DNA from: a virus
Taxonomy: Duplodnaviria > Caudoviricetes
Strand: one strand, 5' to 3'
DNA length: 44,877 nt
IMG/VR virus record: IMGVR_UViG_3300037478_000562
Location: 1 to 44,877 of that record
Shown here: piece after piece, positions 2,326-35,523 of the stretch
Layout: each line of letters starts with the position of its first letter
Position numbering within the stretch: position 1 is the first letter of the stretch
Notes under the pieces: model-generated
What the model was told of the DNA's origin: nothing
Seen by the model: only the letters and a program-made list of their open reading frames with translations
Databases searched by the model: none
Translations under genes and position numbers: made by a program

Positions 2326-2582
2326 CACGCCTCCTTCGGCCGCCGCGACGCGGCCTGCTGCTGCTCGTCGAGCCACGCCTGCACCGTCGACAGGCGCCAG
2401 CGCGGGCTCTGGCCGCTGCGCCCTGGGAGCACCAGGTCGGGCCCGGGGAACACCTTCGCGGTCCGCAGCCTCCACAGCCGCTGCGGCGTGACCGAGAGCG
2501 CTGCGGCGACCTCGCGCGGGCCGAGCGCGGGGTCGAGCGTCAGCACCGTCTTGACCTCCGCCGTGATAGCCGGCGCCCTCAC
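2325..2582 (-). CDS. AlpA/excisionase-like winged-HTH protein
   Basis: LGPREVAAALSVTPQRLWRLRTAKVFPGPD...SPRWRLSTVQAWL matches the AlpA/Xis pattern (FPxP...RW...V..W). Confidence 0.75.
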   Translation of the reverse strand: MRAPAITAEVKTVLTLDPALGPREVAAALSVTPQRLWRLRTAKVFPGPDLVLPGRSGQSPRWRLSTVQAWLDEQQQAASRRPKEA

Positions 2583-2878
2583 GGCTGCGCCCCGTCCGGG
2601 TCGCACGGCATTTCGACGACAGCGCCATCGCAGTTGATAACCACCGTCTCGATCTCCCGTCGGGAAGCCCACCGATACACGGACGAGCAGGCGCCTCCGC
2701 CGCCGAAGGCATCGCCCCCCGAGCTGCTCATCCGGTGGCCGCGCACGCAGGCGACACGTTCGCCGTCGACGTAGACCGCGAACGTCTTCTGCGGCTTCGT
2801 GGCCGGATCCGAGTCGCCGGTCGCCAGAAGAAGACCCCCGGTCGCCAGAAGAAGACCCGCAAGCGCTAAAAACCTCAC
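2579..2878 (-). CDS. small secreted/exported Cys-containing protein
   Basis: MRFLALAGLLLATGGLLLATGDSD signal-like N-terminus; four Cys. Confidence 0.55.
   Translation of the reverse strand: MRFLALAGLLLATGGLLLATGDSDPATKPQKTFAVYVDGERVACVRGHRMSSSGGDAFGGGGACSSVYRWASRREIETVVINCDGAVVEMPCDPDGAQP
2818..2858. repeat. 21-bp in-frame tandem duplication (GLLLATG x2)
   Basis: ggtcgccagaagaagaccc occurs twice at 21-bp spacing. Confidence 0.8.
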
Positions 2879-3078
2879 TACGCGGCCTCCCCCGCGAGCA
2901 TCCGCCGCGCGCACTCGCCCGGGTGGACCCCGTGCGACACCAGCCCGTCCGGGCTCGCGCCGTGGTGGACCAGCTCGCGGCAGACGCAGCAGATGGTCCG
3001 GATCCGATCGGGGCCGGCCTCGACAGGGATCCGCGGATCCGGCGCCGTCGGGGCGCTCACGCCGTTGCTCCGAGGCAC
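2878..3078 (-). CDS. small hypothetical protein with CCxC and HxxC motifs
   Basis: ORF track; fits the operon chain. Confidence 0.5.
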   Translation of the reverse strand: MPRSNGVSAPTAPDPRIPVEAGPDRIRTICCVCRELVHHGASPDGLVSHGVHPGECARRMLAGEAA

Positions 3079-3617
3079 AGCGACCGGTCCGTCTCGCTCA
3101 GCCGACGCTGTAGGTGCGCCAGCTCCACCGCGAGGGCCCGACGCTCGATGTCGTCGACCACCCCGTCAGCGAGAGCCCGCAGCATCCCCGCAGAGACGCG
3201 GGACGCGGCGGCGTCGAGCTGGGCCGCAGCCTCGGGGATCGCCCGGGCCAGCGGTGCCGCCGGCACGAGCCGGTAGCCCGCGGCTCGAGCGAGCGGCCGG
3301 AGCGCCTCGACGGCGGCCCGCGGCGCCTGAAGGCTCCACCACGCGAGATCCTCGAGCGGGAGGGCGCGCTCCCCCAGGAGCTGGGATCGCGCGTAGCGCC
3401 CGTTCCGCGGGCCGCTGCATGTCTCGACCGATCCGCCGAGGATGCCGTGCAACCCGGCGAGCGACTCAGCCGCGAGATCGACGGCGGCGGGGGTCGCGCG
3501 GGCCAGGAGGGACCGGCGCCGCGAGAGGCGCTCGCGGTACTGGTCCAGGGGATCCGCCGCTGGGACTCGCGGCGGGGCGGGTGCCGGCGCCATCGTGGAG
3601 GGCATGACGCCGCTCAC
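3057..3617 (-). CDS. phage regulatory CII-like protein (CP76 type)
   Basis: Immediately downstream of cro; C-terminal LARAAGYRLVP...ALADGVVDDIERRAL pattern typical of this family. Confidence 0.65.
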   Translation of the reverse strand: MSGVMPSTMAPAPAPPRVPAADPLDQYRERLSRRRSLLARATPAAVDLAAESLAGLHGILGGSVETCSGPRNGRYARSQLLGERALPLEDLAWWSLQAPRAAVEALRPLARAAGYRLVPAAPLARAIPEAAAQLDAAASRVSAGMLRALADGVVDDIERRALAVELAHLQRRLSETDRSLCLGATA

Positions 3618-3871
3618 CGCGCCGCTTCGGCAGCCTCGGGGGCCACCAGCTCGGACGCGGGCTGCTCGGGGGCGAAGGTCTCCTCGTAGGTGACCGGCCT
3701 CCCCAGGCGCTCGGTGAAGTAGGCGAGGCAGCGCTGAATGTCGTCCAGCGTCCAGCGTCGCGCGCCGCGGGCCTTGCGGCTGATCGTAGAAGTGTCCTGG
3801 CCGAGGGCGCGCCCGAGTTCAGTCCGGGAGACTCCCTGCCGGGCCATCCATGCCATGATCCTTGACTGCAT
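3614..3871 (-). CDS. Cro-like XRE HTH regulator
   Basis: HTH VSRTELGRALGQDTSTISRKARG; divergent from repressor; probable leaderless ATG at 3871. Confidence 0.8.
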   Translation of the reverse strand: MQSRIMAWMARQGVSRTELGRALGQDTSTISRKARGARRWTLDDIQRCLAYFTERLGRPVTYEETFAPEQPASELVAPEAAEAAR

Positions 3872-3957
3872 GGCCATACAATGCGCGTTCGTGGCCAAGT
3901 TGTCAAGCCCAATTGTCAGAGCGCCCCGCGATGGCCGAAACTATTGACGCATTGTCA
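3863..3957. promoter_or_regulatory. cI/cro switch: leftward promoter and candidate operators
   Basis: Minus strand TTGACA(3906-3901)-17 nt-CATTGT(3883-3878); related 14-mers at 3863-3876, 3892-3905, 3905-3918, 3944-3957 (TGGCCA-N4-GTCA-like). Confidence 0.6.
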
Positions 3958-4254
3958 TGGTCCGAACGGGCGCCGATTCTGGCGAAGGCGTTGAAGGATA
4001 AGGGGCTGAGCGGCGCGGAGGTCGCCCGGCGTCTCAACTACGACCCGAGTCACGTGAGTCGGTGGCTGAGAGGGGGGCGAGTTCCAGACGCCGAGCAGCT
4101 CGAGTCGATGCTCAGGCTCGCGGACTATTCCGCCGACGAGCTGCTCGGCATCACCTCGAGCGCGTTGCGGCGCCGGGCCGAAGAGGCGCAGCGGATGATC
4201 GACCGGTTGACCGACGCCCTCGCGCTGATCGAGCGCTCCCGGCCGGCTCAATGA
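3931..4254 (+). CDS. CI-like XRE HTH repressor (107 aa, no peptidase domain)
   Basis: GLSGAEVARRLNYDPSHVSRWLRGGRVP...SADELLG is a classic HTH_3/XRE; C-terminal coiled coil. Confidence 0.85.
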   Translation: MAETIDALSWSERAPILAKALKDKGLSGAEVARRLNYDPSHVSRWLRGGRVPDAEQLESMLRLADYSADELLGITSSALRRRAEEAQRMIDRLTDALALIERSRPAQ

Positions 4255-4354
4255 GGAGGCGAGCCACGCGCTCCAAATACTCGGCCGTGCTTCGCTGCTC
4301 TCGCGCTACCGCTTGCAGCGCCTCGCCCAGCTCGCGCCTGACCCGCTGATCCAT
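4151..4354 (-). CDS. small helical protein, antisense-overlapping the cI 3' end
   Basis: GGAGGT RBS before ATG 4354; first ~35 aa amphipathic. Confidence 0.4.
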   Translation of the reverse strand: MDQRVRRELGEALQAVAREQRSTAEYLERVARLLIEPAGSARSARGRRSTGRSSAAPLRPGAATRSR

Positions 4355-4495
4355 CCGCCACCTCCGCTAGAGGCCGACCATGCTACGTTCACACCACGTC
4401 AGATGCGGTCCGCCGCCGTGCGGTTCCGTGCAATATCGTTGCGTTGTGTGCCTGAGCCAGAGGGCACCCAAGATGCAGTGTGAACGGAGGGCGCG

Positions 4496-5050
4496 ATGGC
4501 GATGAAGGGCTGCCCCGACTGCGGGCGCGACGTCTCGAGCAAGGCTAATGCCTGTCCCCATTGCGGCCGACGGCTTCGACGACGGCCGAGTTGCACCTTC
4601 GGTTGCGCCTCGATCATCCTGACGCTCTTCCTAGCCCTGACGATCACGACCGCCCTGCGCAGTCCAGGGCCGCACGTCGCCGCTCCCGGCGCTGGAGACG
4701 CGCCGCCGCGGCCAGCGGCCACGCCCTGGCAGGCGACCCCGACCCCGGAGCCCTGCCAGGAGCACATCGAACTCCACTCGGCCGCTCGGTGGGCGAGGGA
4801 GATGGGGCAGACAGAGGCATGGGTCGTCGCCAACCACCGTATCAACCTGTTCGCGAGGCCGGTCGACCAGGGCCGCGGAGGGAAGGTCGGTGAACTGCTC
4901 CCGGGCTCGCGCGCGTCGATCGTGAAGCGGGGCGAGAACGAGTACCAGATCCGCAGCCCGCTCGACGGCTCCGTGGGGTGGGTTTCAGCCCTTCAGGTGG
5001 CGCGCACGCTCCACCAGGACGTCAACACCCGGGAGCCGTGCGAGCCGTGA
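4496..5050 (+). CDS. zinc-ribbon + TM + SH3-like exported domain membrane protein (lysogeny module)
   Basis: CPDCG...CPHCG; TM IILTLFLALTITT; INLFARP...ELLPGSRASIV...YQIR...GWVSA SH3b-like; GGAGG RBS. Confidence 0.75.
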   Translation: MAMKGCPDCGRDVSSKANACPHCGRRLRRRPSCTFGCASIILTLFLALTITTALRSPGPHVAAPGAGDAPPRPAATPWQATPTPEPCQEHIELHSAARWAREMGQTEAWVVANHRINLFARPVDQGRGGKVGELLPGSRASIVKRGENEYQIRSPLDGSVGWVSALQVARTLHQDVNTREPCEP

Positions 5051-6239
5051 GCCCCTCGAGCCGGTCGGCCCAGCGCTGGAGCGCCTCAGCGATCTCGGCC
5101 TGGTACAGGTGCCGGTCGTAGGTCTCGACGAGCCCACCCCGCGAGTGCCCGAGGACCAGCTCCGCGACCTCGTGCCGCACCCCCAGCTCGGCGAGCCCGG
5201 TCCTCACGGTGCGGCGGACGTCGTGGTGCCGGTAGTCGGAAGCGACCGCCCGGAGCCGCCGCGCCATGTGGTCGCGGCTCCCCATCGTGAGCGCGGCCCC
5301 CGGCCGTCGCGGGGACGGAAAGACGAGCCCTCGAGCCGTGCGGCGCCCCTCGAGCATCTCCCGGGCCTGCCGCGGCAGCACCAGCACCAGCGGCCGCCCG
5401 CCCTTCGTCCGCAGCCGCGTCCACCGGCCCGTGTCGGGCTCCAGCTCCTCCCACCGCAGCTCGGCGACCTCCGACGACCGCGCCCCGGTCCACCACAGCA
5501 GCCGCCACCAGTCCCGATAGACTGCCCGCTCCCCGCCCACAGCGGCCCAGAGCGCCGCGATCTCGGCCGGGAGGTAGTAGCGCTCCCTCGCGCGAGCGCG
5601 CGGCCCACGCAGGCCGAGGAACGGGTACGGCGCCGCGATGGGGATAAGCCCCCGCTCCACGCCCCAACTCCACGCCCGCCGGGCCAGCTCGAGCGTCCGC
5701 CGAGCCTGTGCCGGCGAGCCCCGGTCGATGACGCCCTGGATCGCCAGCGCCAGCGCGCCGCGCACGGCGGGGTCCGCTGGCCGGAAGCGCCCGATCGCCG
5801 GGAGCAGATCCTTGCGCATCATCTGGGGCCACTGCACGCGCGTCGTCCGCCCGTAGTGCTCGCCAGCAGCGAGGTGGGCGCCGAAGCGCTCCAGCACCAC
5901 ACCCAGGGTCAGCTCGAGCCGCGCGGCGGCCCGGGCACGGCGATCAGCGACGCGCTCCTCGTGGGGGTCGTGGCCGGCGTCCACCAGCCCCCGGGCCCGT
6001 CTCGCACTCAGCCGGGCCTGCGCCAGCGACACGTCGGGCCACCGCCCCAGCTTCAGCCGCCGCACCCGAGCCTCGGCCCGGTAGAGCAGCACCCAGGTCC
6101 GGATCCCGCTCGGCGTCACCCGCAGCACCAGGCCACGCTGCAGGGTGTCGGCGTAGTCGGTGCGCTGGCCGTCGACCGCTTCGAGCCCCGCGATCCGCGC
6201 GGCCTCGAGCCGCAGTCGCGCTCCACGTTTGCGCTGCAC
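5022..6239 (-). CDS. int: tyrosine integrase, P4-like with N-terminal arm-binding domain
   Basis: GLVLRVTPSGIRTWVLLYR...LGRWPDVSLAQAR arm domain; catalytic R (GARSSE), K (TKGG), HDVRR, LGH, Y (TYD). Confidence 0.95.
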   Translation of the reverse strand: MQRKRGARLRLEAARIAGLEAVDGQRTDYADTLQRGLVLRVTPSGIRTWVLLYRAEARVRRLKLGRWPDVSLAQARLSARRARGLVDAGHDPHEERVADRRARAAARLELTLGVVLERFGAHLAAGEHYGRTTRVQWPQMMRKDLLPAIGRFRPADPAVRGALALAIQGVIDRGSPAQARRTLELARRAWSWGVERGLIPIAAPYPFLGLRGPRARARERYYLPAEIAALWAAVGGERAVYRDWWRLLWWTGARSSEVAELRWEELEPDTGRWTRLRTKGGRPLVLVLPRQAREMLEGRRTARGLVFPSPRRPGAALTMGSRDHMARRLRAVASDYRHHDVRRTVRTGLAELGVRHEVAELVLGHSRGGLVETYDRHLYQAEIAEALQRWADRLEGLTARTAPGC

Positions 6240-19452: not shown

Positions 19453-19938
19453 CTATGCCCCCCCCGCCAAGCGATCCCGGATCCGCTGTAGCGTCATCTC
19501 GGCGCTCGCCCGCACGATCGGATCGGCCTTGCGCCAGCCGTCGCGGAACATGTGGTGTCCCTTGAGGCCGCGGCGCCGGATCGCGTAGCGGACCCGCGCG
19601 GCGATCGCCACGGCATCGGCGGCGCCGAACTTCGCCCGCGCCCACCGCACCAGCGGCTCGAGGGGCGGCCACCAGCGCTTCTTCGACCCCTTCTCCACCA
19701 CCATCGCGTGCGGGAGCGGGTTGAAAACGCGGCCGGTCAGCGAGACCTCGGAGCCGGTGACATTCGTTTGGATGGCTCCACGGGTGCCGCCGGTGTTGAC
19801 GGGCGTGAGCGGCGCGATGTAGAGCACCGCCAGGTTGACGCCCTCCTCGACCCACCCGAGGGTTTCCTCGGCGACAATCACGTCGCCCCGGCCCCCGGCG
19901 AGGCCGTCACGCGGGACCTCGATCTCAAAGCCCAGCAT
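19453..19938 (-). CDS. HK97 gp10-like neck protein
   Basis: TPVNTGGTRGAI...HAMVVEKGS...WPPLEPLVRW...IRRRGLKGHHMF. Confidence 0.8.
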   Translation of the reverse strand: MLGFEIEVPRDGLAGGRGDVIVAEETLGWVEEGVNLAVLYIAPLTPVNTGGTRGAIQTNVTGSEVSLTGRVFNPLPHAMVVEKGSKKRWWPPLEPLVRWARAKFGAADAVAIAARVRYAIRRRGLKGHHMFRDGWRKADPIVRASAEMTLQRIRDRLAGGA

Positions 19939-20645
19939 CAGAAGCGATCCCGTGCATGAAAGAAGCGGTCACTTGCGCGGGAGTCGCCGAACGCAAGGTC
20001 GGCCTCGGCGTAGGCGGCGGCCGGGACGGGCTGATCAGCCGTGCTCCCGATCTTGGCCTCGTACTTCTTGCGGAACGCCGCCGCCTGCTGCCGGTACTCG
20101 CCAGCCTTCGACAACCGGTCCACCGTGTCGGCGTCGATGTTGCTCTGCAGCTCCTGGAGCGACACGGCCGCGAGGTAGTCGAACGCTTCAGCCGCGGAGA
20201 GGTCGGCAAGCGCCTCGTCGTCGCTCGCCGGCACGGTCGACGAGTCAGCGTCGAGGGTGTGCGGCACGGTGTACTCGACGAGGAAGTCCTCGGCCGCCGC
20301 CGGTGTGTGCTCGATGAAGTGCAGCACCGTGCCGGCCGGCAGTCGCCGAACCAGGTAGCGGTCGCGATCCAGCGCCTTGGGCTGCTGGTCCGTGCTCAGG
20401 TAGGGGTAGATCAGATCGAGGATCCCCGAGAACCCGTCGACCCAGCCCGTGAGTCCGGATGTCGCGTAGGAGAAGCCACCGTCCCCGTCGACCTGGGCGA
20501 CGACCTGTCGGGGGCGATCCTTCGAGTAGCGCTCGAGCGCCGAAGCGATCGCGGCGTCCAACTCACCGGGGTTGGTCAGCTTCGCCGCGTCGTCCTGGAG
20601 CCTGGCCAGGAGCTTGGTCCGGATGGCCCCGAGGTTTGCTGCCAT
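19938..20645 (-). CDS. head-tail adaptor protein
   Basis: Position after capsid genes; AAIASALERYSKDRPR pattern. Confidence 0.7.
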   Translation of the reverse strand: MAANLGAIRTKLLARLQDDAAKLTNPGELDAAIASALERYSKDRPRQVVAQVDGDGGFSYATSGLTGWVDGFSGILDLIYPYLSTDQQPKALDRDRYLVRRLPAGTVLHFIEHTPAAAEDFLVEYTVPHTLDADSSTVPASDDEALADLSAAEAFDYLAAVSLQELQSNIDADTVDRLSKAGEYRQQAAAFRKKYEAKIGSTADQPVPAAAYAEADLAFGDSRASDRFFHARDRF

Positions 20646-20654
20646 CGGGAGCCC

Positions 20655-20927
20655 CTAGATGAAGACGTTGAATTGCGGAGTCGTCCCCGTGATCGTCACG
20701 TGGAGGCCGGCGTGGAAGACGACCGGCGCCGCGGGGGTCCAGTCGTCCACGGCGAGGGCTGCGCCAGCGCCGAGCTTCGCGATGATCGGGCCCGAGCCGT
20801 CGACGCTGTCCCGGAGAATCGCCGTAGCGGCGTCGGCTGCGGCGACCAGGCGCGCGCCGAAGACCTTCCCGGGGCCCGAGTGGACCGCCGTGGTGGCCGT
20901 CATGCTGCGCGAGGTCGCCGCCATCAT
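20655..20927 (-). CDS. small virion (decoration-like) protein
   Basis: 90 aa beta-rich; PVVFHAGLHVTITGT. Confidence 0.55.
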   Translation of the reverse strand: MMAATSRSMTATTAVHSGPGKVFGARLVAAADAATAILRDSVDGSGPIIAKLGAGAALAVDDWTPAAPVVFHAGLHVTITGTTPQFNVFI

Positions 20928-20942
20928 GAGCGAGCGCCCCGC

Positions 20943-21344
20943 CTACGGCTCGAAGTCCACGACCACCACGGCCGCCAGGGCGGGGACCAGCACGCCGGAG
21001 GCGACCTTCTCCCACTCCAGGCCGATGTAGTCGCCGGCCGCCATCGGCAGGGGCGTGGCGGGCTCGTAGAGCACCGTCTCGGCCTGGGCCACCAGGTCGG
21101 TCCCGGTGTCGAGGTCGAGGTTCGCGACCTCGGTCGTGTTCTTGTCCACGTTGAGGTTCGTGCGGTTCGTGTTGTCCCCGGTGACCGCGGCCGACGGGTG
21201 GATCGCGACCTTCTTGACGCGGCAGGCGCGTTCCGCCACGTACAGCTTGAGCTTCTCGGTGGCGGTCGCGGCGGCGTGGGCCGGCAGCACCGTATGGTGC
21301 TCCTGCTGGTAGCCGGGGTGATCGCCCTGTGCGTTCTGGCTCAT
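20943..21344 (-). CDS. capsid decoration/cement-like protein
   Basis: Directly after major capsid gene; GAGGAG RBS; beta-sandwich-like composition. Confidence 0.6.
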   Translation of the reverse strand: MSQNAQGDHPGYQQEHHTVLPAHAAATATEKLKLYVAERACRVKKVAIHPSAAVTGDNTNRTNLNVDKNTTEVANLDLDTGTDLVAQAETVLYEPATPLPMAAGDYIGLEWEKVASGVLVPALAAVVVVDFEP

Positions 21345-21372
21345 GTCTCGCTCCTCGAAAGAGGTGTGAGGG

Positions 21373-21402
21373 TGGGGGCTCAGGCGGAGAGCGGAGAGCC
21401 CC
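21373..21402 (-). terminator. GC-rich hairpin after capsid gene (attenuator/stabiliser)
   Basis: GGGGGCTC...GAGCCCCC 8-bp stem; no U-tract. Confidence 0.35.
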
Positions 21403-21414
21403 CAGGCCCCCGCG

Positions 21415-23799
21415 TTAGGTGACGATCCCGCCCTGCATCCCGCGCCAGTCCTCGACCTTCCCGCCGTACTCGTGCCGGAGCTTCCACGACACCTTGTCGG
21501 CCGAGAAGACGGACCCGACGTTGGGCTGGTCCTGGACGAACAGCTCGGGCTCCTCGCGGCCGTCGACGAAGCCCATTTCGATGGTGGGCTGGAGCCGCGG
21601 GTCGGCGAGGATGAACCAGTCGTTCGCGTCGCTCATCGTCTCGAGGACGATCAGCTCGTTCAGCCCGTACCGCTGCACCTGGATGTTGGGCTCCGTCGCC
21701 GCGTTGCCCGAGACGGGCTGCATCGGGATCGAGGTCAGGCGCCAGGCCAACTCCTCGAGTTCCACGGGGACGATGAGGATCTTCGGCGAGAGGCCGAGGA
21801 CCGTGTTCGCGTCGCGGTCCTCGACCTTGAGCAGGCGCTGTCGCGCCACCGCGACGTTGGCGGCCGACAGCGCGGTCGTGTGGATGTTCCCGTCCGACGT
21901 CGGACCGCGGTTCGTCGAGGCGTTGAAGAGCGCGACCGAGTCGTCGAGCGTCGGGTTCGTGATGATCAGGTCGAACACGAACTTGTGAAGCGTGCGGGCC
22001 GCGGCGAGCGCCAGCTTCTGCGGGATCTGCGCGACGAAGCCGACGTCGTCGTTCTTGATCGCCTCACGGGTGATCGAGACGATCCCGCCGCGCTTCGCGG
22101 GCGCGTAGCTGACCTTCTCGTCCGTCGGATCCGCCAGGGTCGGGTAGGTCCCGGCCTGGGCCACGATCGCCAGGTCAGCGAACGACCCCCAGCGCAGCCG
22201 CTCCTGGGTGCGGAAGTCGCCCAGCGGCACGATGTTCGAGCAGATCCGGCGCCACCGCATCGAGAAGTCGGTGGCGCGGTACTCGGCGATCATGCGCCGC
22301 GTGATCGAGTCGCCGAGAAGGTTGGTGAACGTGCCGGTCCCGATCGCCTCCAGGAGGCGCTGGAAGCGCTCGAGCCCGCGCGCCTCGCGGAGCACCCCGG
22401 ACACGTCGCGGTCGCCCGTGATGTCCTCGTAGAGCCGCTTGATCGAGCGCGTCCCGGTCGCGGGGGCGGCGTGGCCCGTGAGGGCCTCGTACTCGCGGCG
22501 CACCTGGTCGGAGGCGCCGTGCATGAAGAACCCGTCGACCGACTCCAGCACCTTGTCCGCCTCGTCGCGGGTGACGTCGGCCGCCGCCTGCCCGCTGCCT
22601 CCCGTGGGCGGCTGGGCGAGCCGGGCGGCCTCCTGCACGATCTCGTCCGCCGCCGCGATCATCTCGGCGACCGTGGCGTCGCGCGTCGCCATCTCCTGGA
22701 GAGCGCGGCGCGCGACGTTCTGCAGCGGCCCGAAGGTCCGCCCCGTCATCACGTGCTGGATCCGCGCCTCGCGCAGCAGCGACCGATCGGCCTCGGTCAG
22801 CCGGCCGGCGTCGGGCGTCGGTGCCGGATTGGTGGCGCCCTGCGCGGGGGCCGGGGCGCCGGTCGCGGGGGCGGCGAGACCCGCGGAGGAGGGCGCCCCC
22901 GACCCCTGCGCCTCGAGAACGCGCAGGAGGGCATCCACCTCGGCTTCGGTGGGCTCGGCGGACAGGTGCGCGCGCAGGCTCGACTCCTGCAGCTTCTGGA
23001 GCTTCTGGGCAAAGGTCACGAGATCCTCCGGGGTCACAGGTACGGGGGTTGCGCTGCCGGCTACCAGCCGCATGACGCGGCCCCCGGCGCTGGGGAAGGA
23101 CACGACGTCGACGGACTCGACGGCCTTGATCGTCTTCACCCGCGTCGCGGGCCCGTCGCCGAGCTTCACGCGCTCGGTCTCCGCCTGGGCCGTATGGCTC
23201 AGGCCGAAAAGGTCGGGGGCTCCGGCGTCGTATGCCTCGAGGAGTCGCTCGCGGAGCCCGGCGTCGGTGGCGTGGAGCGTGGCGCAAATGGCACCGACCG
23301 GCTGAGCCGCCTCGAGCAACCCGTACTGGGCGCCACGCAGGAAGCCCGCGATGTCCCGCGGGTCCCGAAGCGTCCGACCGTCCGAGTGGTTCCAGAAGAC
23401 TTTCGCGCCCTCGTAGAGCGCCGCTGCGGCCTGGAGCACGTGGGCGGGGTACAGGGTGCGGTTGACGCTCAGGCCCTCTTGGATCACCACGACGGACCAG
23501 CGGGAGCCGGCCTTGCCGCCCTCGGCCTCGGTGAGTGGGCCGATGATCAGCGACGCGGCGCCCTCCTTGATCGGGACGTAGGCGATCTCGACCGGCTCGG
23601 GCTCGCCAATGCTCGCGGTGCCGAACAGATCGAAGGTGACGGGGTAGCGGGAGAGCTGCGAATCGGGCCGCTCGACGATGACGTGGTCAGCGAAGGTCGC
23701 GACCAGCGACCAGTTGCTCGTCACGTCGCTGTATGGCTCGCCCAGAACGCGCCGCAGTGCGGCTCGCGCGGCGTCCCGGAGCTGCTCGAACGACTTCAC
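21415..23799 (-). CDS. prohead protease-scaffold-major capsid fusion (Mu gpT-like, HK97 fold)
   Basis: Protease motifs FWNH, FGLSH, SVDVVSFPSAGG; Ala/Pro linker; capsid motifs KRGGIVSITREAIKNDD, PKILIVPVELE, WKLRHEYG. Confidence 0.9.
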   Translation of the reverse strand: MKSFEQLRDAARAALRRVLGEPYSDVTSNWSLVATFADHVIVERPDSQLSRYPVTFDLFGTASIGEPEPVEIAYVPIKEGAASLIIGPLTEAEGGKAGSRWSVVVIQEGLSVNRTLYPAHVLQAAAALYEGAKVFWNHSDGRTLRDPRDIAGFLRGAQYGLLEAAQPVGAICATLHATDAGLRERLLEAYDAGAPDLFGLSHTAQAETERVKLGDGPATRVKTIKAVESVDVVSFPSAGGRVMRLVAGSATPVPVTPEDLVTFAQKLQKLQESSLRAHLSAEPTEAEVDALLRVLEAQGSGAPSSAGLAAPATGAPAPAQGATNPAPTPDAGRLTEADRSLLREARIQHVMTGRTFGPLQNVARRALQEMATRDATVAEMIAAADEIVQEAARLAQPPTGGSGQAAADVTRDEADKVLESVDGFFMHGASDQVRREYEALTGHAAPATGTRSIKRLYEDITGDRDVSGVLREARGLERFQRLLEAIGTGTFTNLLGDSITRRMIAEYRATDFSMRWRRICSNIVPLGDFRTQERLRWGSFADLAIVAQAGTYPTLADPTDEKVSYAPAKRGGIVSITREAIKNDDVGFVAQIPQKLALAAARTLHKFVFDLIITNPTLDDSVALFNASTNRGPTSDGNIHTTALSAANVAVARQRLLKVEDRDANTVLGLSPKILIVPVELEELAWRLTSIPMQPVSGNAATEPNIQVQRYGLNELIVLETMSDANDWFILADPRLQPTIEMGFVDGREEPELFVQDQPNVGSVFSADKVSWKLRHEYGGKVEDWRGMQGGIVT

Positions 23800-25376: not shown

Positions 25377-27077
25377 CTACGCGGCCGCCGCAGTGGCGAC
25401 CGCTGACGCGGGCACCGGCACCAGCCGGCACCTACAGTTGTGTGAGATAATGCCGTTGCTGTGAACGACACCACCGACGGTCTGCACGTCGAATACCGGC
25501 CCCGCGTACCGATAGCTCAGCACTTCGACGACATGGTCCGGCGCTACGAGGCCGGCGAGTCCGTTCTTCAGCTCTCGAAACGCTACGGGGTCTCCCGAGA
25601 CACGATCGGCCGCGCGCTGCAACGCTGCGGCGTTTCCCTGCGCAGCCAGTCCGAGCAGGAGCGGCTGAAGTGGGAGGGGATGGGGCCCACTGCCCGGCGT
25701 CGGCAGGTCGCGGCCGCTCATGCCGCGGTCCGCGGCCGCAAGGCAAGCCCCGCCGAACTCAAGCGCCGCGCCTTGGCCCGCGAGGGGCGCCCCCACCACA
25801 GCCACGTCCTCTACGAGCGCGAGCTGGTCGAGGCCCTCTGCGAGGCCGGCTACGAGCCCGTCCAGAACATGGCGGTCGACGGCTACAACGTCGACATAGG
25901 GATTCGGGAGCGCTGCCGCATCGCCGTGGAGATCCAGGCCGCGAACCACCGGCAACCGCACTCGTCCATTCGCCGCGAGCGTCTCGAACACCTGATCCAC
26001 CGTGGCTTCCGGGTGCTCGTGGTCTATGTGCCGCTGCACGCCAAGCTCGACGTGACCCGGGTCGCTGAGCAGCTCGTCGCCTTCGCGGATCTCGCATGCA
26101 GGCGTCCACCCCCGCCCGGTCAGTACGGGATGATTGGCCGTAACGGCGAGCGTGTGACCCCGCGCCGTCTTGATCCGCCACGCTGTGCCCGCATAGAAGG
26201 CTTCTGAGGCCGCGAGGACTGCTCCACCGACCCTCGTCCCGGGCAGGAAGCAGTTGATCGTCTCCTCGGCCGGGCCACGGGGATCGAGCGGCATCATCAG
26301 CCGCGCCCGGCCGACCTCGAACGGCTTCTCCATCGCGATCGGCCCGGGCCTCGAGCCGCCGAAGCCGTAGCGATCGCCTGCGATGATGTGGCTACGCCTC
26401 ACCCGCTTGTCCCCGGCGGTGAGCCACGCCTTGAGCATCCCGCCCCGGATCCGCTCGTTCCCTTGCCGCATCCGTTCGAACGTCGCCTGGCCGAAGGTGC
26501 GATTCACCTCGGTCCGCACGATCGTCTCGGCCCTGGCCATCGCCGAGCCGAAGGTCTTGGGGTCCCTGATCGCCCGGGTTATCGCGTTGACCGCGGCTGT
26601 GGAATCCACCGCCCCGAGCGACGTGCGCCGGATCGTGTTCCGTAGCTTCGCGCCGAGTTCGCCCCACACCGCCGTCACCTGGCCCGTGGTCACCTGGATC
26701 GACCCGGCGATCAGCTCGGACGAGAACCCCAGCAGCCCGGCCTGGCCGACCTGGGCGCCCCCGACCCCCACCAGCACCCGGTCGACGAGTTCGGCCCCGA
26801 GGGCACCCGCCGTCTCCACCGGGCCCTGGATCGCTCCCATTGCGGCGATCCGGCGCACCTCGATTTCCGAGTCGATGATCGTCAGCAGCGCGGAAAGCTG
26901 CGCCGTGCGGAACCGCGCGGGGTCGAGCCCGGCGAGCATCCCCACCACCGCCCGCCGCAGCTCACGCAGGAAGCGGACCTGCTCGCGCGCGGCGGTCGTT
27001 TCGAGCCGGTCGATCTGCCCCAGGGTGTTCCGGGCTGGGCGCGGGACGCGATAGACAGGCGCCTCGGTGATCCTCAC
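25377..27077 (-). CDS. MuF / SPP1 gp7-like head morphogenesis protein, intein-containing
   Basis: RAETIVRTEVNR, KAWLTAGDKRVRRSH, P.DP...ETIN|CRC restored after intein removal; GTG 27077 overlaps portal stop. Confidence 0.9.
   Translation of the reverse strand: MRITEAPVYRVPRPARNTLGQIDRLETTAAREQVRFLRELRRAVVGMLAGLDPARFRTAQLSALLTIIDSEIEVRRIAAMGAIQGPVETAGALGAELVDRVLVGVGGAQVGQAGLLGFSSELIAGSIQVTTGQVTAVWGELGAKLRNTIRRTSLGAVDSTAAVNAITRAIRDPKTFGSAMARAETIVRTEVNRTFGQATFERMRQGNERIRGGMLKAWLTAGDKRVRRSHIIAGDRYGFGGSRPGPIAMEKPFEVGRARLMMPLDPRGPAEETINCFLPGTRVGGAVLAASEAFYAGTAWRIKTARGHTLAVTANHPVLTGRGWTPACEIREGDELLSDPGHVELGVQRHIDHEHPEATVDQVFETLAANGRVRLPVVRGLDLHGDAAALPNPYVDVVAVDRHVLDGLVAGLAEGLDQLALVEDVAVVGAPLAGQGAALEFGGACLAAADRGMSGRDLPTPGSGPHPLPLQPLLLGLAAQGNAAALQRAADRVSGDPVAFRELKNGLAGLVAPDHVVEVLSYRYAGPVFDVQTVGGVVHSNGIISHNCRCRLVPVPASAVATAAAA
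25437..26252 (-). mobile_element. intein (272 aa) inserted in the NCRC motif of MuF
   Basis: Block A CFLPGTRV, block B LAVTANHPVLT, block F YAGPVFDVQT, block G GIISHN followed by Cys+1. Confidence 0.92.
25461..26207 (+). CDS. HTH + DUF559/Vsr-like (PD-(D/E)XK) putative homing endonuclease encoded antisense inside the intein
   Basis: HTH ESVLQLSKRYGVSRDTIGRALQRCGV; nuclease pattern ERELVEAL...Q..VDGYNVDIGI....IAVEI...H...RERLEHLIHRGFRVLVV; exact start uncertain (GTG 25461 or ATG ~25533). Confidence 0.8.
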   Translation: MNDTTDGLHVEYRPRVPIAQHFDDMVRRYEAGESVLQLSKRYGVSRDTIGRALQRCGVSLRSQSEQERLKWEGMGPTARRRQVAAAHAAVRGRKASPAELKRRALAREGRPHHSHVLYERELVEALCEAGYEPVQNMAVDGYNVDIGIRERCRIAVEIQAANHRQPHSSIRRERLEHLIHRGFRVLVVYVPLHAKLDVTRVAEQLVAFADLACRRPPPPGQYGMIGRNGERVTPRRLDPPRCARIEGF

Positions 27078-31752: not shown

Positions 31753-32055
31753 CTATCCCTGGTCCCATCCCCGGCCCCGCCAGGTTCGCCAGGGCCGATA
31801 GACGCACCGGAGGATGGCGTACCGCAGCCACCCTATCGGAGTCCACCACCCTGCCGGCGAGCGCCGCTGCATGCAGTGGAGGAAGCGCGCGTCGGACTCA
31901 GCGAAGGTGATCGGCTTCCCGTCGATCGTGCGGTGTGTGCGCTCGTGGATGTCATGCTCGAGGCAGCAGTCGCGGAAAAGCGCGCCGCCCATCGTGCAGC
32001 CGTCGGAGTCCAGCTCTCTGGCTCGCGCGCGTACGCGGATCCAGTAGTCGCTCAT
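31753..32055 (-). CDS. phospholipase A2-like / DUF1353-like small protein
   Basis: SDGCT...DCCLEHD...ESDARFLHCM...YAILR pattern. Confidence 0.6.
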   Translation of the reverse strand: MSDYWIRVRARARELDSDGCTMGGALFRDCCLEHDIHERTHRTIDGKPITFAESDARFLHCMQRRSPAGWWTPIGWLRYAILRCVYRPWRTWRGRGWDQG

Positions 32056-32156
32056 CGAGTCGCCTCCTCGGCCGCGCGCCGGTAAAACGCCGACGCCTCA
32101 TCGAGCAGCGGCCCGAGGACCGCGCGGACGGCGTCGACCATCGCCTCGAGCATCAC
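32052..32156 (-). CDS. 34-aa hypothetical peptide
   Basis: Stop/start overlaps on both sides; contains the GAGGAGG RBS of the next gene. Confidence 0.4.
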   Translation of the reverse strand: MMLEAMVDAVRAVLGPLLDEASAFYRRAAEEATR

Positions 32157-34354
32157 GGCACCCCCGCCACGAGCCCGACGAGCCACTGCCTCGCCCCGGG
32201 CGCGCCGTCGCGCGGCTGCGTCGACACGAGCTTGACCCGCAGCGAGGCGCCGGCCGGCAGCCCGGGGACGCGCATCAGCACGTCCGCGACCCACGCCCAG
32301 CGGAGGTCGGCCTCGGTCGCTGCGGCGCAGTCGTCGCAGTCCTCGGGAGGTAGCGCCGCGATCTGCTCGCGGACCCCGTAGCCGAGGTAGGCCCGGATCC
32401 GCCAGTCGGCGTCGCGTTCCCCAGCGGCCAGGCGCACGCCGGCCAGGGCCTGGAGCGGCTCGACCTCGATGCGCTCCCGATCATCCCCGAGCGCGATGGT
32501 CACGCCGCCCGCGACCGCCGGGGAGAGGCTCCACGGGCCAGCCTCGATCCCGTCGACCGAGATCCCGAGCGTCGCCTCGCCGCCGAGCCAGGGGCTCAGC
32601 TTCAGCGGGTCCTCGACAGCGCCGCTCTGCGGGGCGGTCTCGAGCGCCCCGAAGAGCCTGAGCCGGCGCCAGGGCGGGGTGCGGGCTGTGAGCTGCGCGT
32701 GCCACGCCCGGCGGCTGTCGTAGGCCCCAGAGCCCCGGGCCGTGAACACCTGGTAGAAGCCACCGTGCAGCTCCAGCGTCGCCGCCTCAGCGCCCTCAGG
32801 AGCGACGATCGCGGCATCCCGGGGCCTCGTGGTGGGGTGGGCCCCTTCCGGCGCCTCCTGGAGAGGCTGCAAGTTGGTGGATTCGCTGGACTTGCGCGAA
32901 TCGCGTCCGCGCTGGAGTCCCGGGGCCAGCGGCGCGCCCGTAAGTCGTTGATTCTGCGATGCCGGCTTGAGGCCGACCCCCCCAGACTCTACCGCAAGCG
33001 CTGGCGGAAGAAAGATGGCCCCGCGCGGTCGATTCCACTGGACAACCGCAAGCGCTGGCGGTATATTAGGGACATCATGGAGGCCACGATGAGCACGAAC
33101 GAAACGCTGGCAGTCGCCTTTGTCGGTCGTCGTCACGGGGCGGTCTTGACCACCGACCACGCGGCCAGCTCCTACGGGCAGCCCGTGCTCGTGGTTGACG
33201 GGGTCGCGTACAGCCCCGCCGACCCCGTCCCGGCTCAGTACATGGCCGAGACCGGCATGAGCCCCACCGTCTGGGGAAACATCCACCTCTGCCCCGAAGA
33301 CCTGGTCTACCCGCTGCACCCGCTGCACCAAGCGTGGGTGACGGCATGCAGTCGCGTCCCTGAGTGTCACGATCTCTGACCCCAGCTTCCCGCTCTCGGG
33401 CTCCGAGGGCGGGGGGAAGTGGTCAGATTCAGGGCCGAGAGGCCCGAGGAGAGTGAGATGAGCAGCACCAGCAGCACCCACGAGACGATTCAGGCGGGTC
33501 GCCAAGCCGAGCGCCTCGGCCAAGTCAAGACTCTCCATGCCGCCCTGGCTAACGCCCTGGCGGGGTGCGTCGAACTGCAAGGCGCCCTGGACCAGGGCGA
33601 TATCGCGGACGCCATCGAGTGGCTCGAGGCACTCCAGGCCGACGCCGCGCGCGCATTGCTGGAGGTGAGGTAAATGCGGAAACTCCATTACTCGCCGTGG
33701 CCGATTTGGCGCGACGGCAGACAGCGGGAGCGTGCGACAGGACTTGAGACTGCGTGCGGGTACTACCGGCGCAGCGTAGCGCTCACCACCCGACGCGAGG
33801 ATGTTACGTGCGCGTCGTGCCGTAAAGTAGCGCAGGCTGCCAAGTAGATGCCCCGCCAGCGAGCCGTCCCCGGGGTGGGCCGCATCGAGCGCACCCGGGT
33901 CGTCGTCTACGCCGACGGCCGCGAGGAGACCTACCCGTCCCAGCGGCTCGCGTTGCTGGCGCTCGCGGACGCTGCCCGGGCTGAGATCGCGCGAGCGGCT
34001 GCCCGTAAGGCGGCCCGCGCCCTCGGGTCCCGAGGCGGGAAGGTCCGAGGCCCCTCGAAGGCCCGCGCCTCGGCCGGCGACGTGAGCCGCGCCTACTGGG
34101 CGAACCTCACCGACGAGCAGAAGCGAGAGCAGGGGCGGCTCCGCGCCGAGTCCCGGAGACGCAAGAAGGCCGAGCGCGAGCAGCAGTAGCGCTCGGCGGA
34201 CCGGCCGCGGCTTCGGCGGCGTCCACCGGCGCTTGCTTCGGTGGCGCAGCCGGGCGACCGCCAGGGCGGCGAGTGGCGACAAGCCGAAGGCGATCGCCAG
34301 CAGCAGCGCGGCGACCAGCGCGGCGACCGGCGCGGGCTCGGGCTCACAGATCAC
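32153..34354 (-). CDS. 733-codon ORF: N-terminal TM/signal region + antisense-derived insert + C-terminal beta-barrel-like domain
   Basis: Start and stop both GTGA-coupled to neighbours; ends (34354-34190 and ~32840-32153) have GC-rich third positions; C-terminal alternating hydrophobic strands (WRIRAYLGYG, WAWVADVLM, WLVGLVAGV). Confidence 0.6.
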   Translation of the reverse strand: MICEPEPAPVAALVAALLLAIAFGLSPLAALAVARLRHRSKRRWTPPKPRPVRRALLLLALGLLASPGLGAEPPLLSLLLVGEVRPVGAAHVAGRGAGLRGASDLPASGPEGAGRLTGSRSRDLSPGSVRERQQREPLGRVGLLAAVGVDDDPGALDAAHPGDGSLAGHLLGSLRYFTARRARNILASGGERYAAPVVPARSLKSCRTLPLSAVAPNRPRRVMEFPHLPHLQQCARGVGLECLEPLDGVRDIALVQGALQFDAPRQGVSQGGMESLDLAEALGLATRLNRLVGAAGAAHLTLLGPLGPESDHFPPPSEPESGKLGSEIVTLRDATACRHPRLVQRVQRVDQVFGAEVDVSPDGGAHAGLGHVLSRDGVGGAVRDPVNHEHGLPVGAGRVVGGQDRPVTTTDKGDCQRFVRAHRGLHDVPNIPPALAVVQWNRPRGAIFLPPALAVESGGVGLKPASQNQRLTGAPLAPGLQRGRDSRKSSESTNLQPLQEAPEGAHPTTRPRDAAIVAPEGAEAATLELHGGFYQVFTARGSGAYDSRRAWHAQLTARTPPWRRLRLFGALETAPQSGAVEDPLKLSPWLGGEATLGISVDGIEAGPWSLSPAVAGGVTIALGDDRERIEVEPLQALAGVRLAAGERDADWRIRAYLGYGVREQIAALPPEDCDDCAAATEADLRWAWVADVLMRVPGLPAGASLRVKLVSTQPRDGAPGARQWLVGLVAGVP
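32941..33067 (+). promoter_or_regulatory. sigma70-type promoter with duplicated palindromic operator and IHF-consensus site
   Basis: TGGACA(33039-44)-17 nt-TATATT(33062-67); ACCGCAAGCGCTGGCGG identical at 32991-33007 and 33045-33061; TAAGTCGTTGATT (32941-53) is the reverse complement of WATCAANNNNTTR. Confidence 0.8.
33089..33379 (+). CDS. hypothetical phage protein (LTTDHAASSYGQPVLV motif), nested operon gene 1
   Basis: GGAGG RBS 5 nt before ATG 33089, just downstream of the promoter. Confidence 0.75.
   Translation: MSTNETLAVAFVGRRHGAVLTTDHAASSYGQPVLVVDGVAYSPADPVPAQYMAETGMSPTVWGNIHLCPEDLVYPLHPLHQAWVTACSRVPECHDL
33375..33445 (+). other. long intergenic stem-loop plus GNRA hairpin
   Basis: TCTGACC/GGTCAGA, CTTCCC/GGGAAG, GCTCTCGG/CCGAGGGC nested stems; GGGCC-GAGA-GGCCC. 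Confidence 0.65.
33458..33673 (+). CDS. small helical protein, nested operon gene 2
   Basis: GAGGAG RBS; 71 aa amphipathic helices. Confidence 0.7.
   Translation: MSSTSSTHETIQAGRQAERLGQVKTLHAALANALAGCVELQGALDQGDIADAIEWLEALQADAARALLEVR
33674..33847 (+). CDS. 57-aa zinc-binding-like protein (H...TACG...VTCASC), nested operon gene 3
   Basis: Hand-translated MRKLHYSPWPIW...; GGAGGTGAGG RBS; TAA-ATG and TAG-ATG junctions; below ORF-track cutoff. Confidence 0.7.
   Translation: MRKLHYSPWPIWRDGRQRERATGLETACGYYRRSVALTTRREDVTCASCRKVAQAAK
33848..34189 (+). CDS. basic protein with AARALGSRGG motif (candidate DNA-binding regulator), nested operon gene 4
   Basis: AARALGSRGGK...KARA...YWANLTDEQKRE; Arg/Lys-rich. 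Confidence 0.7.
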   Translation: MPRQRAVPGVGRIERTRVVVYADGREETYPSQRLALLALADAARAEIARAAARKAARALGSRGGKVRGPSKARASAGDVSRAYWANLTDEQKREQGRLRAESRRRKKAEREQQ

Positions 34355-35523
34355 GGCCGCACCCGCGCTACCGGCGGGGGCGAGTCATGCAGCACCCCGG
34401 GCACCGGACACCAGCCGTCGCTGCCCCGGTAGTACCGCCAGTAGGCGACGTGCCGGAAGCCCCGCCCCAGCACGTACTCGAGGCCGTCCTCGTGGCGCAC
34501 GCGAGTCCCGCGGGAAAGGTCCGGATTCGTCGCGTACCAGGGCGCGGGGGATCGCGGGTGCAGCCACATGAGCCCGTCACCCTGGGGGCGCGGTCTCGTC
34601 GGCTGGCTCGGCGTCGCGGCGGTCGGGCCGGCGAGCGGGAGGAAGTGGTCGGTGGCGCCGACGTTCGCATCGCGTCGCTCGATCCAGTCCCAATTCGGCG
34701 GATCGCCGAAGCCGTCGCACAGCTCGCCCGGATCGCCCGGGCTACCGGATCCCAGGTCCGGCCCCGAGCCGTCGGTCAGGACGCAGTCGAAGGGCTGATG
34801 CTCGAGGTCCGAGCCCACGCAGTAGCGCCCGTCAGGGTCGACCGCGCCGCACTTCGCCAGGTCCCACTGCTCGGCGGCGACGAGGCCCCTGGGGTCGTCG
34901 ACCACGATCAGGATCTCGTCGGGCGAGCGCCCCGAGGGGTCGCCGCTGTACGCGCAGTGGCCGGCGGCGATCAGCTCGGCGGCGACGTCCTGCGTGTACC
35001 GCCTCATGTCGGGCTCGGCGTCGGGGTCCGGGGTCCGGAGCTTCGCGCGAAGCTGGCCGGCGCGCTCGTGGATCTCGACCAGGTAGCTGGGGCGGGAGGC
35101 GATCACGCGGCGCTCGGCGGCCGAGACTGCAGCTCCGGCCAGCGCGCGGTCGTCGCCAGCCCGGCAGGTGAACGCCGTGATCGGGGGGCAGCTCGCGGGC
35201 GGCAACACGGGGGGCGGCGTCGGGGTCGGAGCCGGCCCGGGCGTTGGCGTCGGCTCTACCTCCGGCGGGGGTGTGGCGGTCGGCGCGGGCGTTGGGGTGG
35301 GCTCCACGTCACAGCCCTCGACCACGCGCCAGGTGCGGCGCGGGATCCTGTCGGCGCCCACCACGATCGGGCCCTCGATCACGCACTTCGCGGGGAGCGG
35401 CGTGCCGTCGGCGCGGACGGGCCAGGGGTCGCGCGCCAAGCGCACCGTCGCGCAGCCGTGCGCCATCACGAGCGCCGGCACCAGCGCGGCCAGCGTCCAG
35501 AGGATCCCGCGCCAATCCTTCAT
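34351..35523 (-). CDS. Cys-rich lipoprotein with Pro/Thr linker
   Basis: MKDWRGILWTLAALVPALVMAHGC lipobox-like signal; PTPTP repeats; paired cysteines. Confidence 0.7.
   Translation of the reverse strand: MKDWRGILWTLAALVPALVMAHGCATVRLARDPWPVRADGTPLPAKCVIEGPIVVGADRIPRRTWRVVEGCDVEPTPTPAPTATPPPEVEPTPTPGPAPTPTPPPVLPPASCPPITAFTCRAGDDRALAGAAVSAAERRVIASRPSYLVEIHERAGQLRAKLRTPDPDAEPDMRRYTQDVAAELIAAGHCAYSGDPSGRSPDEILIVVDDPRGLVAAEQWDLAKCGAVDPDGRYCVGSDLEHQPFDCVLTDGSGPDLGSGSPGDPGELCDGFGDPPNWDWIERRDANVGATDHFLPLAGPTAATPSQPTRPRPQGDGLMWLHPRSPAPWYATNPDLSRGTRVRHEDGLEYVLGRGFRHVAYWRYYRGSDGWCPVPGVLHDSPPPVARVRP

Follow-up and report, generated by a model that had tools for sequence, protein, structure and literature searches.

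A putative cassette of antisense genes lies in register within one open phage reading frame, separating a predicted export signal from a predicted beta-barrel

We analysed a 733-codon open reading frame (ORF) on the minus strand of the virus record IMGVR_UViG_3300037478_000562 (Duplodnaviria; Caudoviricetes), which was taken at its whole length of 44,877 bases, has 70% GC and is called the window here. The middle of this host ORF is the reverse complement of a promoter and four small genes. The reading that we favour, and hold to be probably correct, is that an exchangeable, promoter-bearing cassette sits antisense and in register between a predicted export signal and a predicted outer-membrane beta-barrel, and that selection likely keeps the frame open for one precursor. 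It builds on the nesting itself, a frame that is open in three phages with different cargo, uninterrupted homologues, a conserved barrel and a neutral filler adjoining it. Judged by sequence, the locus is a real feature with unusually direct comparative support from a small sample of three cassette-bearing sequences, two complete and one without the barrel side, two of them from one metagenome. Besides the window these are G002, a complete phage of 43,383 bases that is 72-84% identical to the window in matching stretches, and L014, a 2,434-base contig that ends at the start of gene 1, the barrel side lying outside the contig.

The minus frame is free of stops from 32153 to 34385 and yields 733 amino acids (aa) from a GTG at 34354, while the remaining two minus frames contain 14 and 17 stops within 32153-34354. 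GTGA overlaps, indicative of stop-start coupling, are found at both ends of the ORF. A sequence-only reading had pointed to this long, doubly coupled frame and to four plus-strand genes starting at 33089, 33458, 33674 and 33848, all at positions equal to 2 modulo 3 and in register with the minus ORF; both descriptions are accurate. The same applies to the TAA-ATG and TAG-ATG joints that it described between genes 2, 3 and 4, and to the promoter and spacer hairpin that it placed inside the minus ORF (10 of 12 promoter matches; hairpin z = -4.7). Sigma70-like sites numbered 2 in 7 kb, compared to 0.3 in shuffles. Its statement that ATGA or GTGA overlaps are used almost everywhere in this phage went too far, since only 14 of 47 junctions are 4-nucleotide overlaps, which makes them common, not near-universal.

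TTA, CTA and TCA, the codons that read as stops in antisense, account for 0.37% of the 11,906 codons in the window, and given the register, a minus frame without stops has a probability of 0.24-0.29 over the four genes, 0.22 over the promoter region and 0.76 over the spacer. Same-strand junctions in the window are in frame in 12 of 47 cases and abutting in 1 of 47. The rough product including the five phases is about 1e-4, uncorrected for picking from many windows; this value is within reach of a scan over many windows, and a single window does not settle the matter. Moreover, this genome has many antisense frames of 400-945 codons that are in register with genes, which bears out the caveat of the sequence-only reading that such frames are often open in GC-rich DNA: openness inside genes is unremarkable (P about 0.24-0.40). 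By sequence statistics of this kind the window alone is weak evidence, and it is the relatives that carry the case.

The cassette of G002 comprises a diverged gene 1, an unrelated gene 2 and no gene 3, and its barrel is only 40% identical to that of the window. All three genes of this cassette start in the same register, and no stop interrupts the minus frame from 2570 to 5243. L014 contains a third cargo, and a GTGA overlap with the upstream gene is present as a sequence signature in the window, G002 and L014. The earlier proposal that the host frame has been kept readable fits these relatives, in which the frame is open across different cassette contents, over the whole cassette in G002 and from the GTGA-coupled start to the contig end in L014. 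None of the refuting conditions set out with that proposal arose in the fully readable sequences. Because whole-gene swaps preserve phase automatically, only length changes outside the genes count, and all five of these non-coding or stub changes between relatives are multiples of 3, the kind of change that the proposal had called for (spacers of 78, 84 and 75 bases; N-terminal stubs of 165, 147 and 153; a change of -3 in the leader before gene 1 of G002). The promoter region has accumulated 60 substitutions without gaining a stop (chance 0.45). The rough joint chance of the new features in the relatives is 2e-4 if independence is assumed.

Yet another gene 1 is seen in the runs X2 and X3 (loose end behind 33067), and its start, too, is in register with the promoter region. 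Run X2 further contains, before window position 33069, a copy of the gene 1 start behind a different upstream sequence with its own palindrome; this different upstream sequence in the X2 contigs bearing the gene 1 start suggests that promoter-operator modules are swapped too. Among the joints shown from four DNA runs none corresponds to clean cassette excision; joint sides cover at most 24 letters, except for one joint that fits a shorter cassette.

Intact relatives indicate what the cassette interrupts. G001 has closely similar flanks, no cassette and a 256-aa gene product in which a hydrophobic leader sits directly on a barrel 76% identical to that of the window. In P0002, P0012, P0015 and P0016 a leader directly precedes the barrel; P0013 is a fragment. 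P0018, which belongs to the same 90% cluster as the G001 protein, is an uninterrupted chain of 302 aa composed of a membrane helix, a basic/proline-rich loop, a second hydrophobic stretch ending in G-A, a short linker and the barrel. Helix and barrel are thus not separate genes in homologues, in agreement with the sequence-only reading. The first 70 residues of P0018 align with aa 17-68 of the window with a score of 63; the best score is 47 among 38 other N-termini of this phage and 30 among windows of downstream filler. This alignment places the insertion point just behind the second hydrophobic stretch and gives an insert of about 425 residues. A likeness of 9 in 10 bases was also seen between the G001 start and the W44 codon of the window.

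Each of the 5 homologue types that are intact and full-length has a hydrophobic leader, and the two cassette-type barrels lack one of their own. It had been proposed that signal and barrel remain joined through a linker of about 430 aa. The open joining frame was found as proposed, whereas the first membrane helix does not qualify as the signal. Since this helix is missing in G002 and the second hydrophobic stretch (aa 55-71) is kept in the three cassette phages, we predict the latter to be the conserved export signal. Leaders were identified from hydropathy and inspection, and a cleavable Sec signal is a prediction by those means. The second stretch is at the same time the antisense reading of the last 16 codons of gene 4. 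Its dismissal as a mere shadow of the charged tail of gene 4 is disfavoured, as 12,028 shadow codons contained only 4 comparable hydrophobic stretches, and 0 of 49 gene ends had one.

The sequence-only reading was right about a barrel-like C-terminal domain, for which it gave a start at about 32840; the barrel proper starts near 32773. The model of the C-terminus is all-beta, with a predicted local distance difference test score (pLDDT) of 64 and a predicted template modelling score (pTM) of 0.60, and it best matches bacterial and phage outer-membrane barrels. Top PDB matches were OmpT, OpcA, Ail and OmpX at template modelling (TM) scores of 0.3-0.5, and models of phage outer-membrane proteins in BFVD reached a TM of 0.52. 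Atlas neighbours at 0.92-0.95 include Tsx and Phage_OMP, of which the Pfam family Phage_OMP (PF24653) is a weak Atlas lead comprising 16% of members. We therefore class the C-terminal domain as a predicted outer-membrane beta-barrel. It resembles phage outer-membrane beta-barrels matched in BFVD in its predicted fold, its signal-bearing intact homologues and its phage location, but differs in having no sequence-level family match and in being interrupted by a nested operon. A model of the whole ORF, computed with a 2-sequence alignment, had a pLDDT of 28 and no confident fold and was otherwise uninformative.

The ratio of nonsynonymous to synonymous substitution (dN/dS) of the barrel against G001 is 0.25, similar to the 0.20 of a neighbouring control gene, which argues that the barrel is under purifying selection and not decaying. 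By the same measure, the filler next to the barrel evolves neutrally: the 103 codons between barrel and gene 1 (32777-33088) have a dN/dS of 1.0 against G002. With a barrel at 0.25, adjoining filler at 1.0 and an open frame, it is the frame that is conserved, not the filler sequence. A dN/dS of 0.90 for the barrels of the window and G002 was not used, as at this GC content their synonymous sites are almost saturated. Outgroups are as close to cassette-type barrels as to the intact barrel, and intact P0015 and P0016 share 64-65% identity with the G002 barrel.

On the plus strand, genes 1 and 4 behave as real genes by their substitution patterns, because differences between gene 1 and its G002 homologue fall mostly on third codon positions (6/2/14 by codon position in a 31-codon core) and gene 4 has a dN/dS of 0.42 in its own frame vs 0.80 in the minus frame. 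Genes 2 and 3 are without detected homologue, and their basis is ribosome-binding sites, junctions and, for gene 2 only, a codon score. The exact sequence of gene 3 is absent from the searched collection. None of the four genes matched Pfam; PHROG matches were weak (E 0.014-0.052) and none was a nuclease, PADLOC gave weak matches only (E 0.02-0.05), and gene 4 had no usable Atlas match (best 0.83). No further copies of the 18-base-pair (bp) promoter palindromes with up to 3 mismatches occur elsewhere in the window. Compared with its flanks, the region 32830-32960 is better conserved between the window and G002, and it contains a short inverted repeat and a site like those of integration host factor (IHF); positions 32941..32953 match the IHF consensus, with the same sequence in G002. 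This region may be a packaging, recombination or regulatory site. Features of the locus are listed in Table 1.

Table 1. Positions of the host ORF, its predicted parts and the nested cassette in the window
Feature	Position	Strand	Remarks
Host ORF, 733 aa	32153..34354	-	N-terminal helix, basic/proline loop, signal-like leader, ~425-aa filler, beta-barrel; G002 (633 codons from GTG) has the same layout and open frame, as does L014 up to its contig end
First hydrophobic helix, aa 10-34	34253..34327	-	In window, L014 and intact P0018; absent from G002
Predicted export signal, aa 41-71: basic/proline segment, then hydrophobic stretch with G-A at its end	34142..34234	-	Near-identical in three phages; aligns with P0018 N-terminus
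Filler, aa 72 to ~495, antisense reading of cassette	32870..34141	-	Without confident fold; barrel-side part neutral
In-frame TTG, gene callers' start (P0001, P0011)	32870..32872	-	Also in G002; product without hydrophobic leader
Predicted outer-membrane beta-barrel, ~10-11 strands	32153..32773	-	76% identical to intact G001 protein, 81% to P0018; no Pfam/PHROG family
Two 18-bp imperfect palindromes, operator-like	32991-33008, 33045-33062		Second occupies promoter spacer; both retained in G002
Sigma70-like promoter of cassette	33039..33067	+	10/12 matches; -35 is TTGACA in G002
Cassette gene 1, 96 aa	33089..33379	+	Diverged homologue in G002; unrelated gene in L014
Spacer hairpin	33375..33427	+	z -4.7; G002 hairpin of different sequence at same place, z -4.1
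Cassette gene 2, 71 aa	33458..33673	+	Unrelated genes in its place in G002 and L014
Cassette gene 3, 57 aa	33674..33847	+	Window only; weakest support as a gene, limited to junctions and a ribosome-binding site
Cassette gene 4, 113 aa, basic	33848..34189	+	Sole gene common to all three cassettes (3' half only in L014)

Under the favoured reading, ribosomes from the upstream gene would be handed on at the GTGA overlap and would read through the back side of the cassette. The second hydrophobic stretch would direct Sec export, with cleavage after A71, the unfolded filler would reach the periplasm and be tolerated or trimmed there, and the barrel would be inserted from its C-terminus into the outer membrane. 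Secreted proteins such as autotransporters can have long unfolded regions ahead of a C-terminal barrel. Read-through would bring a further benefit, in that the lysis-region and terminase genes downstream would stay coupled and be protected from polarity. Cargo could be exchanged only for genes in the same register, a condition that swapping whole genes between fixed start and stop sites would satisfy automatically, and the cassette is likely transcribed at another time than the late operon, under control of the two promoter palindromes. Translation, cleavage, export and anti-polarity of the fusion are what we infer from this layout. The broader notion that the junction of signal and mature domain is a reusable landing site for a swappable antisense operon, whose back side is exported as a disposable propeptide without splicing and with cargo accepted only in register, has in our judgement about an even chance of being correct.

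Other explanations account for parts of these data. The frame might serve solely as a ribosome bridge that carries ribosomes and prevents termination across the cassette, the fusion not being exported and the barrel being made from the internal TTG or useless. Stop-start coupling at both ends in both complete phages, neutral filler, conservation of the TTG in the window and G002, and the precedent of P4 eta, as given in the accessible part of its description (PMC10111431), agree with such a bridge. However, a bridge needs neither the conserved signal-like stretch nor the conserved barrel, yet both are kept; the TTG product would be without a leader, and on reading the sequence no Shine-Dalgarno motif was seen before the TTG. 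We consider a bridge alone unlikely. It is quite unlikely, too, that the open frame is a passive by-product of a single ancestral in-register insertion, kept open by GC-rich codons and in phase by swaps, with a host gene that is broken in practice. The rarity of antisense-stop codons, just 0.37% of codons, a 528-codon shadow of three genes in the same genome and a possible stop in the X2 fragments are what this explanation can draw on, but it has to face length changes that are multiples of 3 in 5 of 5 non-coding or stub cases, 60 promoter-region substitutions without a stop (P 0.45) plus a new in-frame gene junction, and two barrel types, 40% identical, that are intact behind the same junction. 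Finally, leader and barrel could become joined directly if the cassette were removed before completion of the protein, whether as an unrecognised intron, through excision from DNA or through self-processing of the protein. Both junction regions are well conserved in DNA, minus-strand folding at the 5' junction is modest (z -2.3), and an IHF-like site near the barrel junction coexists with a phage tyrosine integrase. Nevertheless, RNA or DNA removal would need no open frame, no Rfam intron matched at E <= 5 in the window region or L002, no intein family was found in the ORF although Pfam flagged a real intein elsewhere in the window, and among the repeats shown there is no pair on either side of the cassette. 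Removal is thus very unlikely in our estimate.

The reading that the open frame is kept for one exported precursor has in its favour that the same genome contains an intein whose frame is necessarily read across an antisense gene. Several points weigh against it. Only three cassette-bearing sequences were found, two of them from one metagenome. The N-terminal alignment with P0018 relies on low-complexity blocks, which inflates its shuffle z of 5-6. Conservation of the in-frame TTG in the window and G002 offers a possible alternative start for the barrel, and the filler has weaker hydrophobic patches of its own, with 11-residue hydropathy of 2.0-2.1 in G002 and L014. Stop avoidance within the cargo genes is not significant alone (P 0.24-0.40), whole-gene swaps retain phase for free, and the probability products are approximate and assume independence. 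As an internal chance control, the plus frame at 19839-21422 gives no indication of coding for a protein and has 528 open codons antisense to three structural genes that share a frame. Moreover, two X2 contig pieces (30-base overlap, depth about 5) imply that one base is lost at 33413 and one gained near 33450; the minus frame would then meet the TGA codons at 33423 and 33429 unless both are altered. The linkage of these pieces is deduced from the table of joints, and other substitutions in them are not displayed. The possible X2 spacer stop may be erroneous, may come from a copy that is not nested or may be a genuine counter-example.

The locus can be compared with several known systems. Inteins with endonuclease genes on the antisense strand are on record, among them VSR-like cases and non-canonical inteins of minor capsid proteins (bioRxiv 10.1101/2025.01.02.630785, accessible part). 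Like inteins with an antisense LAGLIDADG or VSR-like endonuclease in that account, the host ORF contains a real antisense gene and its frame would be read across as filler; unlike them, with a splicing domain that cuts out the filler and a single endonuclease as cargo, it holds a variable three- or four-gene operon with a promoter. No Pfam family, and hence no Hint splicing domain, was found in the 733-aa ORF at E <= 0.1, nor were an N-terminal C/S and C-terminal HN plus C/S/T motifs seen; Pfam and PHROG detected no homing endonuclease among the nested genes, and no group I or II intron core matched Rfam at E <= 5 in the window region or L002. The ShiLan insertion in a phage DNA methylase is stop-free and non-splicing and hides one HNH gene (PMC11855218, accessible part). 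The two insertions are alike in being stop-free and hiding a gene in another frame, that of ShiLan being thought to be tolerated as a loop of the host protein. They differ in that ShiLan, as described there, hides one homing HNH endonuclease in another frame, while the present insertion is antisense and multi-gene, has no detected nuclease and lies between export signal and mature domain.

P4 eta is an ORF coupled to its upstream gene, and its translation lets transcription pass an embedded unit (PMC10111431, in the part available). Translational coupling to the upstream gene is shared with the host ORF, here as the sequence signature of a GTGA overlap, whereas eta is described there as embedding an internal promoter, an immunity RNA and a nested kil and as joining no signal to a barrel, in contrast to the antisense protein operon found here. 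Noncontiguous operons or excludons have antisense genes between operon genes (PMC11034616, accessible part). The present locus likewise has oppositely oriented genes flanked by co-oriented operon genes, as judged from its sequence, but here the block lies within one ORF and not between genes, and the class is further defined by a single mRNA running over the antisense genes and by mutual repression of the two transcripts; an open frame across the antisense genes is not described in the accessible part of that source. The literature searched gave no account of a variable cassette of several antisense genes placed between a signal and a mature domain; most subscription papers and all supplements lay outside this search, and supplement lists of nested or out-of-frame insertions could bear on the matter.

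Searches for further relatives added little. Genome-contig scans with two barrel alignments found no prophage or host (0 of 72 and 0 of 113 confirmed), a metagenome scan with the gene 4 alignment gave 596 candidate stretches with none confirmed, a DNA-pattern scan returned 2 loci, one being the G002 contig again, and a viral scan with the long-ORF alignment (54 of 64 parts) returned G002 only, among the matches listed. Barrel and gene 4 had no match in annotated phage records. No gene-called long fusion was present among 8000 candidates of 403-1283 aa, which says little as gene callers miss such ORFs. L003-L005, with 45% identity over 31 residues of gene 4, were dropped; L003, the one read, is a different protein with stops in its antisense frame.

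The window encodes a tyrosine integrase and divergent helix-turn-helix regulators, by which the phage is classed as temperate. The host ORF belongs to a minus-strand run with a lytic transglycosylase gene on one side and terminase genes on the other; the position of the barrel gene among lysis-region genes is a lead only on the role of the barrel. Since intact homologues of its barrel carry export leaders, the phage host is suggested to have an outer membrane rather than to be an actinobacterium. Next to the barrel, at 31753-32156 on the minus strand, a 34-aa ORF coupled to a 100-aa ORF without hydrophobic N-terminus replaces the single 122-aa post-barrel gene of G001 and G002; a C-x-x-H-D motif in the product recalls secreted phospholipase A2, with no Pfam match. 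Judged from translations, packaging in G001 (L001 1889-2860) employs a terminase other than that of the window, together with an HNH-like gene and a region of G-rich repeats, and G001 shares the barrel and its neighbours with the window. By such sequence comparison, module exchange occurs right beside the barrel locus. Elsewhere in the window, a gene resembling Mu-F or minor capsid genes (25437-26252, minus strand) contains an intein that starts with C and ends with HN followed by C, and in the middle of this intein lies, antisense and in register, a gene for a helix-turn-helix and PD-(D/E)XK-like nuclease (25461-26207, plus strand). This intein resembles the antisense VSR-like architecture in the accessible part of bioRxiv 10.1101/2025.01.02.630785.

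Gene callers label barrels of this kind as leaderless fragments (P0001, P0011) and never report the true ORF, and more cases could be hidden. If the favoured reading is true, a prokaryotic gene can hold a whole promoter-bearing, variable operon without splicing at a place where its amino-acid sequence is free. The locus would then be a natural comparative case of translation of both strands in which one product is constrained in frame and not in sequence, and would allow a direct test of why long antisense frames persist. It would also suggest how far Sec and the beta-barrel assembly machinery (BAM) tolerate unfolded filler between signal and barrel.

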